A stretch of 64,000 nucleotides of DNA from Burkholderiales bacterium (GTDB taxonomy: Bacteria > Pseudomonadota > Gammaproteobacteria > Burkholderiales > SG8-39). Made by a program: the position numbers and the translations under genes. Shown here piece by piece: positions 6,507 to 12,797 of the stretch. The number at the start of each line of letters is the position of its first letter. Within the stretch, counting starts at the first letter, position 1. A model generated the notes under the pieces. It saw nothing but the letters and a program-made list of their open reading frames with translations, was not told where the DNA came from and searched no databases. Where the stretch lies: assembly GCA_035577785.1 (NCBI GenBank), contig DATLUZ010000222.1, positions 139 to 64,138 on the forward strand, in the 5' to 3' direction.

Positions 6507-8777
6507 TCAGGTCGCGCGAACGAGCTGGTCGCTCGTGGCATGGAGCGTCGCCTTCAGATCCAGGAGCACGTGGGGGCCGGCGTCCGTCAGGTCGGGACCC
6601 GAAAGCGCTTCGAGGCGGCCGGCGCAGTGTCGCAGCCGGTCCGCGCCCATCATCGCCGCCGCGCCCTTGAGCACGTGAGCGAGCTCGCGCGACCTGTCGA
6701 GATCGCCCCGGGAGAGGGCCGCTTCGATCTCGTCGACGAGGCGCTTCGCTTCACGCGTGCACCGGGCCGACCAGGCGGCCACGAAGCCCGGATCGCGCGA
6801 GATCCGCGCCACGTCGCGCAGCCAGTCCCGGTCGACGTAATCCTCCTGCGCCGGCCGCGCCGCCGCAGCGCCGGCCTCGCGCATGCCGGAGACGGCCTGG
6901 CTAACGCCGTGCAGCAGCTCGCCGGAATCGACCGGCTTGGAAAGGAATACGTCGATCCCCGCGGCCAGCGACTCCTCCCGCAGATCGGCGCTCGCCACCG
7001 CGGTAAGCATGACGATCGGCGTGCGCCGGTTCCCGCCGCTCGCCTCGAGCGCGCGGATGGTCCTCGCGACGTCCAGGCCGGTGCTTCCCGGCATGTGCAT
7101 GTCGAGCACCACCACGTCGAAGGACAGGCTACGCAGTTGCTCGATGACGGCGCCCCCTTCGCCGACCTGCGTGACCTGGTGGCCGCCGGCTTCCAGCATC
7201 ATGACGATGATCTGTCGGCTCATCGCGTGATCCTCGGCCACCAGGACGCGCAGGCCGCGCGTGGCGGCGATCCGCCGCCCCGCCCGGGCGCCCTCGGCAT
7301 CGCTGCACGCATCCGCCGGCTGGCGCACGAGCGGGACCGTGAATCGGAAAACGGTGCCTTTGCCGAGCTCGCTGTCGAAGCCGATCGTGCCTCCCATCAG
7401 CTCGACGAGGTGCCTGCAAATAGTCGTTCCGAGGCCCGATCCCCCGTACCGCCTGTGGATCCCGGCGTTCGCCTGCGTGAAGCGGTCGAAAATGCGAGCC
7501 GCGTCCTCGGTCGCGATGCCGATGCCCGTGTCGCGCACCTCGAAGCGCAACGTCACCTCCGCGCCGCTCTGCGCAGCCATGCCGGCGCTCACGCAGATCT
7601 GGCCCTCGCTGGTGAATTTGAGCGCGTTCGCCGTGAGGTTGATCAGCACCTGCCGGATGCGCACGTCGTCTCCGATCAGCAGGCAGGGCACGTCCGCGGC
7701 GATGAGGTGGGTGAAGCCCAGCCCGGCACGCCGGGCCTGCGGCTCGAATAGCGTCGTCAGCCGCTCCATCAGCGTGCGCAGGTCGAACGGCGCGCGGTCG
7801 ATGGTCATCTTCCCTGCCTCGATCCTGCGCAGGTCGAGCAGGTCGTCGACGAGCGAGCGCAGTTGCCGCGACGACGCCAGCAGCCACTCGACCAGCTGGC
7901 GCGCGGCACCCGGTAGCTTCCGGGCGGCGAGCAGCTCCGCAGCGCCGACGACGCTGTTGAGCGGCGTGCGCAGCTCGTGGCTCATGGTCGCGAGGAACTC
8001 GCTCTTCGCCTCGCTCGCGGCCTTCAGCTCTGCCGTCCGCTCGGCGACTCGGATCTCGAGCTCGTCGCGCGCCTGAACCAGGGCTCGCTGCTTGTCCTCG
8101 AGCACCAGGATGTCGCGCTGGATTCGGGCTGCCATGCGGTCGAACGTCCGGCCGACGACCGACAGCTCGTCGCGGCCCGCGAAGCCCGTGCGAACGTCCA
8201 GATCGCCCGAAGCCAGGCGCGCCGCAGCGTCGGTCACGGTCTTGAGCCGCCGGGTCAGCAGGAAGCCGAAGCCGACTCCGGCGACGGCGATGACCGCCAT
8301 CCCGATCAGAGCGATCACGATGCCGCGGGCGGTGGCCTGCCGGGTCGCCTCGATCAGCTCGCGGTTGGAGAACTCCACGGCGATCATGCCGAGATTGCCC
8401 ATGGTCTTGGTGCGCCAGAAGCGCCCGGAGGTGTCGCTGAACCGCGCCGGGAGCGCCTTGCCGAGGTCGGAGAAATCGGTGCTGACGACGATTCGCCCGC
8501 CGCGGTCCCCGACCAGCACCTTGAGGATGTGCGCATTCCGGGCGAGCTTTTCCGCGTATTCCTGGAGGTCGCCGAGATCCTTGGTCAACAGCGCGTCCTG
8601 GCTGAGGCGGGCGAAGATGTCGAGGATGACCGTCTCGTTGTCGGCGAGCTGCGCGCGCGTGTTTTCCTCGGAGAAGCGCAGCGTCTGTCCCAGGACCAGG
8701 AACATCATCGCGGCCTCGAGCACGAAGATGCACGCGGCGATGCGGTACTTCAGCGAGAGCAGCGGATGCCAACGCAT
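6507..8777 (-). CDS. hybrid sensor histidine kinase/response regulator (2 TM, HAMP, HisKA, HATPase, REC, Hpt)
   Basis: Motifs seen: HAMP (LTRRLKTVTDAAARLASGDLDV), H-box FLATMSHELRTPLN, HATPase N/G boxes, REC (VLVAEDH...VVVLDMHMPG), and a C-terminal Hpt HVLKGAA. Confidence 0.9.
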   Translation of the reverse strand: MRWHPLLSLKYRIAACIFVLEAAMMFLVLGQTLRFSEENTRAQLADNETVILDIFARLSQDALLTKDLGDLQEYAEKLARNAHILKVLVGDRGGRIVVSTDFSDLGKALPARFSDTSGRFWRTKTMGNLGMIAVEFSNRELIEATRQATARGIVIALIGMAVIAVAGVGFGFLLTRRLKTVTDAAARLASGDLDVRTGFAGRDELSVVGRTFDRMAARIQRDILVLEDKQRALVQARDELEIRVAERTAELKAASEAKSEFLATMSHELRTPLNSVVGAAELLAARKLPGAARQLVEWLLASSRQLRSLVDDLLDLRRIEAGKMTIDRAPFDLRTLMERLTTLFEPQARRAGLGFTHLIAADVPCLLIGDDVRIRQVLINLTANALKFTSEGQICVSAGMAAQSGAEVTLRFEVRDTGIGIATEDAARIFDRFTQANAGIHRRYGGSGLGTTICRHLVELMGGTIGFDSELGKGTVFRFTVPLVRQPADACSDAEGARAGRRIAATRGLRVLVAEDHAMSRQIIVMMLEAGGHQVTQVGEGGAVIEQLRSLSFDVVVLDMHMPGSTGLDVARTIRALEASGGNRRTPIVMLTAVASADLREESLAAGIDVFLSKPVDSGELLHGVSQAVSGMREAGAAAARPAQEDYVDRDWLRDVARISRDPGFVAAWSARCTREAKRLVDEIEAALSRGDLDRSRELAHVLKGAAAMMGADRLRHCAGRLEALSGPDLTDAGPHVLLDLKATLHATSDQLVRAT

Positions 8778-8787
8778 CGGGTCTCTT

Positions 8788-11289: not shown

Positions 11290-11303
11290 GGTTCGATCAG
11301 GCG

Positions 11304-12797
11304 CTACCCGCCGCGGCTGCCGCCTCGCTCACCGCCCAGGTACGAGGGCACGCCGGTCAGCACCCCCTGGAAGTCGGCGAGCGGCGGTCCGACCGCGACC
11401 CCGCCGGAGCTCAGGGTGAGCTCGCGCACCGCGGCCTCGTGCGGGCCGCTGCGCTTCTTGATGATCGAGATGGCCTTGCGGATGTTGCCAAGCGCCTCGA
11501 AGAAGCGCGTGATGATGACGCTGTCGGCGAGGTAGCTGACGTCGATCGGCGTGCCCATGGGCCCGATCAAGCCGTGCTGCGCGAGGATCATCATCGTCAT
11601 GACGCCCTGCTGATTCAGGTAGGTCAGCAGCTCGTGAAGGTGCAGGTGCAGGAACTCCTCGTGCGGCATGGCCGTGATGTAGCCGTTCAGGCTGTCGAGG
11701 ACCACGACGCGCACCTTTTCGTGCTCTACCGCGGAGCGGATGCGGAACGCCAGCTCGCCCGGCGAGATCATCGCCGGATCGACCTGCTCGATCTTCAGCA
11801 CGCCCGACTGGAGATGCGGCGCGAGACCGATATTCATGGCGTCGGCGCGCTCGCAGAGGGTCGCCTTGGTCTCGTCGAAGATGTAGTAGTTCACGCGCTC
11901 GCCGCGCCCGGCCGCGGCATGCGCATACATCGTCGCGATGGTCGACTTCCCGCTGCCGGCCGGGCCGATGATCAGGTTGCTCGTGCCGTAGTGCAGCCCC
12001 TGGCCGAGCAGCGCGTCGAGCTGGGCATTGCCGCTCGCGGCCAGCGCCTTCCTGAAGGGGGTGTGGTAGTCCGCAGCGACGAGCCGCGCGAAAACCTGCA
12101 CGCCGCCTTTCGCGATCGCGTAGTCGTGGTTTCCTTCCCGGTAGTGCACCCCGCGCAGCTTGGTCACGGCGAGGCTGCGGCGGAAGATGCCGTAGTTCAG
12201 CGGTGCCGCGTTGAGCGACAGCGCCCCATGCACGATGCTGTGCACCTGCACGTCGCTCGCTTGCGAGGCCCGGTCGTCGAGCAGCAGCACGGTGCAGCCG
12301 AGCTCGCTCAGCCGCTGCTTGAGCCTGAGGACCTCGCGCCGGTAGCGCAAAGGCGTCTGCGCGAGCATCCGCATCTCGGAGAGCGAATCGAGCACTAGGC
12401 GCGCCGGCTTGCCGCGCTCGATCTCGTCCATCAGCAGCTTGGTGAGCTGGGTCAGCTCCACCTCCGCGGACTGGAACAGCGTCGTGGGACCCTTGCCGCC
12501 GTACGCGCGCTCGATCGCGGAAAGCTCGATGATCGAGATACCCTCGAGGTTCCAGCCGTGCGAAGACGCCACTGCCTCGAGCTCGAGCTTGGTCTCGGAC
12601 AGCGTCACATAGAGGCACTTCTCGTCGAGCCGCTTTCCCTCGAGGAGGAACTGCATCGCCAGCGTGGTCTTGCCCACGCCAGGATTTCCTTCGACGAGAT
12701 AGAGGCAGTTGCGCGGCAGGCCGCCGCCCAGGACGTCGTCCAGGCCGGGAACGCCGATGCTGAGCTTGCTCGAGATGGGATTCATCGATAGCCGCAA
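11304..12797 (-). CDS. kaiC: KaiC-like double RecA-domain ATPase
   Basis: Two KaiC-type domains, each with a Walker A (GNPGVGKTT; GPAGSGKST) and a Walker B (RLVLDSL; VVVLDSL). The C-terminal KaiC-like segment is DSVIITRFFEALGNIRKAISIIKKRSGPHE. The start is TTG 12797 or ATG 12785. Confidence 0.85.
   Translation of the reverse strand: MRLSMNPISSKLSIGVPGLDDVLGGGLPRNCLYLVEGNPGVGKTTLAMQFLLEGKRLDEKCLYVTLSETKLELEAVASSHGWNLEGISIIELSAIERAYGGKGPTTLFQSAEVELTQLTKLLMDEIERGKPARLVLDSLSEMRMLAQTPLRYRREVLRLKQRLSELGCTVLLLDDRASQASDVQVHSIVHGALSLNAAPLNYGIFRRSLAVTKLRGVHYREGNHDYAIAKGGVQVFARLVAADYHTPFRKALAASGNAQLDALLGQGLHYGTSNLIIGPAGSGKSTIATMYAHAAAGRGERVNYYIFDETKATLCERADAMNIGLAPHLQSGVLKIEQVDPAMISPGELAFRIRSAVEHEKVRVVVLDSLNGYITAMPHEEFLHLHLHELLTYLNQQGVMTMMILAQHGLIGPMGTPIDVSYLADSVIITRFFEALGNIRKAISIIKKRSGPHEAAVRELTLSSGGVAVGPPLADFQGVLTGVPSYLGGERGGSRGG

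Follow-up and report, generated by a model that had tools for sequence, protein, structure and literature searches.

Two neighbouring sensory gene pairs probably account for an apparent four-gene KaiC phosphorelay in a Burkholderiales bacterium

Introduction

A gene for a KaiC-like ATPase heads a set of four closely packed minus-strand genes (6507–12797) in a 64,000-nt stretch of DNA from a Burkholderiales bacterium (assembly GCA_035577785.1, contig DATLUZ010000222.1, positions 139 to 64,138), hereafter the window, whose GC content of ~68% is uniform along its length. The question raised by this locus is whether its four genes constitute a single signalling system. In order, they encode the KaiC-like ATPase (11304–12797, 497 aa as the listed open reading frame, ORF), a histidine kinase named here HK1 (9763–11289, 508 aa), a solute-binding protein (SBP; 8788–9633, 281 aa) and a membrane hybrid kinase named here HK2 (6507–8777, 756 aa). 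An earlier reading of the sequence, the original prediction, had described these four genes with gaps of 14, 129 and 10 nt, as confirmed by the ORF coordinates, and its domain calls for all four proteins proved correct. The GC content at third codon positions was 0.88–0.92 in the four genes, the codon-position profile of real genes. For KaiC, the N-termini of homologs favour the ATG at 12785 (M5 of the listed ORF) over the TTG at 12797 as start codon, and the true product probably comprises 493 aa (11304–12785).

The original prediction joined the four genes in one multi-step phosphorelay, noted that KaiA, KaiB and RpaA-like genes were missing from the window, and placed the terminal regulator elsewhere. 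The last two observations hold. Neither a KaiB-like coding region nor an extra REC or Hpt coding region was detected by tblastn across the window (with a KaiB sequence as query), a search of all six-frame ORFs with a REC profile gave no further REC, and the 64 kb contain no response regulator gene of the REC-only or DNA-binding type; therefore, the partners of both kinases must be encoded elsewhere. As for the relay, comparison with other genomes points in a different direction. With a probability of roughly 0.78, we favour two independent two-gene sensory modules, KaiC with HK1 and SBP with HK2, which are neighbours in this lineage. The apparent four-gene KaiC phosphorelay would then be two known kinds of sensor pair lying side by side in one soil Burkholderiales population.

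Conservation and distribution of the two gene pairs

The KaiC synteny scan covered one genome per species and comprised 80 loci with relatives 50–91% identical to the window protein, or 81 with the addition of contig L081; the window proteins were compared with these loci by tblastn. A kinase bearing the N-terminal domain of HK1 lies directly after KaiC in 76 of the 81, almost always at a spacing of −17 to +26 nt (14 nt in the window; +55 and +72 nt in two acidobacterial loci). Three of the five other loci are cut by contig ends (L008, L010 and L025), L073 gave a weaker match to the HK1 N-terminal domain, and the match in L055 was to the kinase core. Taxa harbouring the pair include Burkholderiales, Usitatibacter, the Stutzerimonas stutzeri group, Achromobacter, Bradyrhizobium, Steroidobacter, Pseudoxanthomonas and several Acidobacteriota. 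KaiC and HK1 are thus a tight and conserved pair, and the combination of a KaiB-less kaiC with a pseudo-receiver kinase appeared very widespread, being retrieved from several phyla. No conserved third partner (REC, Hpt or KaiB-like) was found around it in the 81 loci by the same kind of tblastn search.

In Acidobacteriaceae, the kinase core has been swapped for PAS-HisKA_3 or HisKA_3 while the HK1-type N-terminal domain was retained. Since this domain is kept despite the exchange of the core, we regard it as a KaiC-linked, portable coupling element. Five acidobacterial loci (L058, L060, L065, L069 and L076) encode the pseudo-receiver fused to PAS plus HisKA_3, or to HisKA_3 alone, with no C-terminal receiver.

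The second pair has a distribution of its own, none of the 80 KaiC genome loci containing an SBP homolog. The gene order of the window is TctC-KaiC-HK1-SBP-HK2-(TPR, convergent)-wHTH_TPR-MFS-hflX (wHTH, winged helix-turn-helix), and the four-gene adjacency occurs only in contigs 97–100% identical to it, namely L092 and L093 (100%), where the four genes are followed by the TPR gene, and L083 (97–98%), which reads HK1-SBP-HK2-MFS-hflX and misses the TPR pair. L001 and L002, whose KaiC proteins are 91% and 87% identical, keep TctC-KaiC-HK1, with the convergent TPR gene directly against the stop codon of HK1 and then wHTH_TPR, MFS and, in L001, also hflX; both are devoid of SBP-HK2 within 10 kb. 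The order hflX-SBP-HK2 is found in L081, L082 and L095, with proteins ~85% identical, and in L081 and L095 the SBP-HK2 genes lie 6.5 kb downstream of (KaiC-)HK1-MFS, behind hflX. No repeats and no remnants were detected at the junctions around SBP-HK2, between HK1 and the TPR gene. The four-gene synteny, whose absence from relatives had been named beforehand as a refutation of the original prediction, is therefore missing from them, and only KaiC with HK1 is conserved. The wHTH_TPR and TPR-like genes represent a second variable cassette downstream of HK1, present in the window and in L001/L002 and missing from L081 and L083.

Distant SBP homologs (40–67% identical) have as next gene one for a HAMP protein with two transmembrane segments (2TM), the first ~260 residues of which match the input unit of HK2. 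The output behind this unit is either HK-REC-Hpt or GGDEF, in unrelated neighbourhoods without KaiC. In L084/L085, HAMP-GGDEF proteins 64% identical to HK2 over aa 5–263 are encoded beside 67%-identical SBPs, and the pairing of SBP with GGDEF output recurs in L087/L088 and L123/L124/L132. Among 64 metagenome SBP loci, an HK2-type input unit is encoded directly downstream in 21 (13 with kinase output, 3 with GGDEF, 5 incomplete), while 15 end at a contig edge and 27 show something else downstream. SBP and HK2 move as a unit of their own, a mobile second pair. In L086, the HK2 ortholog (5907–8113) appears in two parts, a 344-aa HAMP protein and a 273-aa REC-Hpt protein, and no kinase core was called; L091, a nearly identical locus, harbours an intact 756-aa HK2 gene, and L086 represents either a pseudogene or an assembly error.

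The 129-nt spacer between HK1 and SBP (9634–9762, minus strand) contains the element CGATAGAATC at 9660–9669, ~27 nt upstream of the SBP ATG, which includes a −10-like TAGAAT. The last ~75 nt before the SBP start, this element included, are conserved in L081/L082, which have hflX as the upstream gene, and also in L091/L086, where SBP heads a divergent intergenic region. Since these ~75 nt are kept irrespective of what lies upstream (HK1, hflX or a divergent gene), the SBP-HK2 cassette appears to carry its own promoter, and CGATAGAATC is probably part of the sequence that fulfils this function. Consensus scans of the intergenic gaps returned no sigma-70 promoter and no terminator, and the spacer folds no better than its shuffles (z −1.48).

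Among the alternatives, the closest to the original prediction is that the four genes together constitute a single operon and a single multi-step phosphorelay, in which KaiC gates HK1 and the HK1 receiver hands its phosphate to the Hpt domain of HK2, integrating a timer or energy signal with a ligand signal. The tight spacing of the genes and the adjacency kept in L083, L092 and L093 would fit this proposal. However, that adjacency is limited to close relatives of the window, in contigs at 85–91% identity the two pairs lie apart or the second is missing within 10 kb, the promoter-like element ahead of SBP-HK2 is conserved, and this second pair is widespread without KaiC. Moreover, the HK1 orthologs of the 76 loci are devoid of Hpt domains and have no neighbouring Hpt gene, from which it follows that HK1 does not depend on HK2. 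A single four-gene system is consequently not supported by the comparison, and we consider it improbable.

Several points do weigh against two independent modules. Both are still within ~8 kb of each other in L081/L095. The four genes are co-directional and the 129-nt gap lacks a canonical terminator, so that read-through transcription is possible, and the HK1 receiver comes without an Hpt domain while the sole Hpt domain within 64 kb is that of HK2, which makes cross-talk between them chemically plausible. Two further points concern how each module would work. The N-terminal domain that binds KaiC in Pseudomonas putida is described as 'PAS', whereas that of HK1 is a pseudo-receiver, and docking of KaiC on HK1 is proposed by analogy; for the periplasmic domain of HK2, the single-sequence AlphaFold2 (AF2) model reached a pLDDT of 57 and Foldseek gave meaningless matches, with a best E of 0.07. 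One might envisage a read-through operon confined to this lineage, where the HK2 Hpt serves the orphan HK1 receiver and the KaiC state and the periplasmic ligand converge on one regulator. If true, the output of KaiC would have been rewired naturally and recently, though we find this improbable; read-through in this strain combined with cross-talk from HK1-REC to HK2-Hpt has no comparative support and seems to us hardly likely.

The KaiC-like ATPase and its kinase HK1

Returning to the two modules as separate entities, the first of them starts with a protein in which Pfam matched KaiC (PF06745) twice (E 4e-66), at aa 13–237 and in the second half. It comprises two tandem KaiC/RecA-like domains with a Walker A motif in each, GNPGVGKT in CI and GPAGSGKS in CII, and aligns over its full length with KaiC structures (8zn5, E 2e-50; Synechococcus elongatus, ~1e-38). 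The best NCBIfam matches are KaiC models (E 7.5e-72), compared with 5.9e-16 for RadA/Sms, so that the earlier description of a KaiC homolog is borne out. Identity as RadA/Sms or RecA was ruled out by the Pfam matches, the NCBIfam scores and the full-length KaiC alignment.

Nevertheless, the protein missed the KaiC equivalog cut-offs of both NF006799 (242.5 vs 408) and TIGR02655 (149.8 vs 546). The phosphosite positions S431-T432 of clock KaiC correspond to S421-Y422 ('SY' type), with T416 at the position of T426, and the catalytic pairs are S67-E68 in CI and D308-E309 in CII, where clock KaiC has E-E. These departures are common to 78–81 of the 81 relatives, and all 81 have [S/T]-Y at the phosphosite positions (77 SY and 4 TY). 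Because of the scores below the equivalog cut-offs and the S-Y, S-E and D-E at clock-defining positions, the sequence identifies this protein as a KaiC-family paralog rather than a circadian KaiC ortholog.

In HK1, Pfam recognized HisKA, HATPase_c and Response_reg domains and left the N-terminal ~135 aa without annotation. The kinase core (10171–10842) consists of HisKA at aa 150–215, with the H-box HELRNPL, and HATPase_c at aa 261–373. It is followed by a canonical receiver at aa 395–506 (9772–10107), where the ED, D, T and K residues are all kept, and HK1 has no Hpt domain. The unannotated N-terminal domain (aa 1–135; 10885–11289) was characterized by alignment, profile search, an AF2 model and Foldseek. 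It has S13-P14 in place of the acidic DD, E57-E58 in place of the phospho-acceptor Asp and R112-P113 in place of K-P, S87 at the Thr/Ser position being the only canonical receiver residue retained. While single sequences gave no Pfam Response_reg match to this domain, a profile built on the alignment of 20 orthologs retrieved almost only receiver domains from the PDB (best E 1.3e-4). The AF2 model, built from a 9-sequence alignment, reached a pLDDT of 85.9 and displayed the (beta-alpha)5 order of CheY; Foldseek returned 210 matches at E<=1e-3, and the top 50 listed were all of CheY-like receiver fold, nearly all of them named response regulators, with TM-scores of 0.61–0.76. The model thus predicts a receiver fold that is not a canonical receiver, and the label 'pseudo-receiver' given to HK1 in the original prediction was right, the canonical phospho-acceptor pocket being absent.

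To size the family, an exhaustive profile search was used against 1.84 billion representative proteins, clustered at 50% identity, as a word-indexed homolog search gave 8 matches only. The HK1 N-domain profile matched 3,824 representative clusters at E<=1e-3. Among the 150 clusters listed, almost all have the domain at the N-terminus or close to it, and roughly half of the proteins measure 490–560 aa. Presumably, this domain serves for KaiC docking; the Glu-Glu in the place of the phospho-Asp together with the predicted receiver fold makes it a concrete candidate for that function.

The original prediction could assign the arrangement to no characterised system. This does not hold for the half formed by KaiC and its kinase, since the class to which it belongs has been described (PMC3164672; bioRxiv 10.1101/2022.01.26.477890). 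De Luca et al. 2011 (PMC3164672) reported a 'second kaiC context' in Ramlibacter, with kaiC directly followed by a specific Nt_HK; members of this class have SY, TY or SF at the phosphosite positions and their genomes are devoid of kaiB. The N-terminal domain of the Ramlibacter kinase, RtaNt, is receiver-like, and the two genes were found by reverse transcription PCR to be co-transcribed (PMC3164672). The window pair resembles Rta_04330/Rta_04340 of Ramlibacter tataouinensis in all these traits, namely kaiC followed by a receiver-like Nt_HK, the SY/TY/SF positions, the absence of kaiB and the affiliation to Betaproteobacteria, and 17 of the 20 bases of a published Rta_04330 primer agree with the window kaiC, at 12381–12400. 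Whereas co-transcription has been demonstrated in Ramlibacter, the window pair was compared at the level of sequence features alone, and on these it appears as a new member of the KaiB-less 'kaiC followed by Nt_HK' class.

For Pseudomonas, three groups of KaiC homologs were distinguished by Terrettaz et al. (bioRxiv 10.1101/2022.01.26.477890), group I being of TY or SY type, and kaiC homologs were found in predicted operons with kinases. Binding between KaiC and kinase was observed by two-hybrid assay and co-immunoprecipitation, in P. putida via the N-terminal domain of the kinase; KaiC phosphorylation tracked culture age and not circadian cues, and the mutants were affected in stress resistance and nutrient use (bioRxiv 10.1101/2022.01.26.477890). 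Group I members such as that of P. protegens CHA0 share with the window the TY/SY pair, the adjacent kinase gene and the lack of KaiB. CHA0 is likened here by these shared features, the nearest pseudomonads retrieved with the window KaiC being those of the Stutzerimonas group, ~52% identical.

The cyanobacterial KaiC with its kinases SasA and CikA is a more distant parallel. It has in common with the window protein the double RecA-like fold and both Walker A motifs, and its partner kinase is recruited via a non-catalytic domain, as would be the case here by analogy. Pseudo-receiver domains, as found in HK1, are also used by CikA and KaiA, whereas the N-terminal domain of SasA is a KaiB-like thioredoxin fold. 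Unlike the cyanobacterial system, the window pair lacks KaiA and KaiB, and KaiC itself departs from the clock protein in having S-Y instead of S-T, S-E and D-E instead of E-E, and scores below the equivalog level.

Putting these likenesses together, we infer the binding and phosphotransfer steps of the first module as follows. By homology with KaiC, the KaiC-like protein would form a hexameric ATPase and autokinase, whose phosphorylation state (at S421, and possibly at Y422 or T416) might reflect the ATP/ADP level or the time spent under stress or in stationary phase. By analogy with the KaiC-kinase interactions of Pseudomonas, it would dock on the N-terminal pseudo-receiver of the cytoplasmic HK1. 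Docking would set the autokinase activity of HK1, and the phosphate could pass to the C-terminal receiver and from there to an Hpt protein or a regulator encoded elsewhere.

Instead of a sensor of stress, energy or culture age, this pair might be a KaiB-less hourglass timer of the day-night cycle, as proposed by De Luca et al. for Ramlibacter and thereby for the same class (PMC3164672), and the retention of phosphorylatable residues at the two KaiC sites (S-Y) and at T416 would be compatible with such a function. Nonetheless, we judge it unlikely, since the homologs tested in Pseudomonas, one of them a TY/SY member of group I, follow culture age and not circadian cues, no KaiB-like coding region was detected by tblastn in the window or the 81 loci, and the CI and CII pairs depart from E-E. 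Moreover, the host, a Burkholderiales-like soil bacterium that is uncultured, shows no evident dependence on light.

The solute-binding protein and the hybrid kinase HK2

The SBP begins with a signal-peptide-like N-terminus (…AAQASA/AD) and matches Phosphonate-bd (PF12974) in Pfam with E 1e-49. ArrX is its nearest solved structure (E 7e-9), followed by PtxB and PhnD. Throughout the SBP subfamily, A-A-V occupies the position of the S-T-S phosph(on)ate-binding (oxyanion) motif, and because this motif is absent the ligand cannot be inferred from sequence. Subfamily members have NPPxxAAVS[HY]L where PhnD and PtxB have S-T-S, together with an invariant C171/C183 pair and five invariant Arg residues.

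That the SBP serves a phosphonate or phosphite ABC transporter of the PhnD/PtxB type as binding component, and is only incidentally adjacent to HK2, is very improbable in spite of the Pfam match, the weak matches to TIGR01098 and PhnD and the name of its homologs at JGI ('phosphonate transport system substrate-binding protein'), given that its score of 72.9 is below the PhnD equivalog cut-off of 261, that A-A-V stands in place of S-T-S family-wide, that no permease or ATPase genes occur beside SBP in the contexts whose genes were listed, and that a 2TM-HAMP transducer is encoded 10–85 nt downstream in ~21 of the 64 metagenome loci and in most long contigs. A transporter role was accordingly discarded on the sub-cut-off PhnD score and the A-A-V motif; in the window, there are no transporter genes beside SBP. 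The 'phosphonate transport' annotation of the subfamily is probably wrong, and these proteins, which accompany HAMP transducers with kinase or GGDEF output and lack the phosph(on)ate motif, would be uncharacterised ligand sensors that are currently mis-annotated.

HK2 contains HAMP, HisKA, HATPase_c, Response_reg and Hpt domains according to Pfam. Its input unit (8073–8777, delimited by hydropathy and Pfam) comprises two hydrophobic segments, TM1 at aa 9–35 and TM2 at aa 147–178, enclosing a periplasmic stretch of residues ~36–146, and a HAMP domain at aa 174–220. The transmitter, within 6507–8072, includes HisKA (aa 257–322) and HATPase_c (aa 369–483), and is followed by REC at aa 511–623 (6909–7247) and by Hpt at aa 675–735 (6573–6755), with the motif HVLKG. 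The weak model of the periplasmic domain shows a helix-helix-beta-sheet-helix order, compatible with an sCache/PDC-like sensor, although the fold is not established. With HisKA, HATPase, REC and Hpt in one membrane protein, HK2 has the unorthodox architecture of BarA, TorS and ArcB. Its best NCBIfam scores, 360 vs 676 for TorS and 329 vs 890 for BarA, are below the cut-off, like those for all named equivalogs, which suggests that HK2 shares the BarA/TorS architecture class without being an ortholog of any named system.

A signalling-only SBP of the PF12974 fold has a precedent in AioX, which acts on AioS (PMC5908839). As in the window, in AioX/AioS and ArrX/ArrS the gene for a secreted PF12974 SBP lies directly upstream of that for a membrane kinase that has a periplasmic domain, and transporter genes are absent (PMC5908839); TorT/TorS and LuxP/LuxQ are more general parallels. 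The match to ArrX is a distant one, and its alignment breaks at the S-x-S region. For that reason, no positions in the SBP could be assigned to the residues of the AioX pocket (Y88, C106, Y131, S161, S163, H192 and D210), the Cys106 equivalent among them, and the pocket was not recovered, A-A-V being found at the S-x-S position. In contrast to AioX/AioS and ArrX/ArrS, the SBP-HK2 operon contains no regulator gene, HK2 is an unorthodox REC-Hpt kinase, and its relatives swap the output for GGDEF. From their sequences, SBP and HK2 would work like sensors of the AioX/AioS type, yet they do not appear to be orthologs of them.

The second module would therefore be an SBP-dependent sensor comparable to AioX/AioS, ArrX/ArrS and TorT/TorS. 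Its secreted SBP would bind a small ligand and, once liganded, contact the periplasmic domain of HK2; the signal would be transmitted via TM2 and HAMP and proceed along a His-Asp-His route to the Hpt domain, ending at a regulator outside the window.

Other features of the window

Upstream, KaiC has a TctC-family gene as its neighbour, and the convergent TPR-like gene, encoding a 544-aa protein (4853–6487, plus strand), is the downstream neighbour of HK2. Beyond it, at 3158–4774 (minus strand), lies the gene for a protein with an OmpR-type winged helix (Trans_reg_C) and TPR repeats and no receiver domain.

A 277-aa ORF with gene-like codon bias and no Pfam match is located at 13818–14651 (minus strand), between the TctC gene on one side and a SnoaL/LigA/LigB extradiol dioxygenase cluster (14655–16199) on the other. 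Three paralogous molybdopterin-binding subunits of the xanthine dehydrogenase/aldehyde oxidase type, each of ~785 aa, are encoded on the minus strand within 30 kb (20363–22711, 28985–31339 and 46411–48789), the first of which gave no hammerhead domain match. Finally, at 60385–63143 (minus strand), a MerR-family regulator gene lies directly upstream of that for a heavy-metal P-type ATPase with YHS and HMBD domains, an arrangement that looks like a copper/metal efflux pair.

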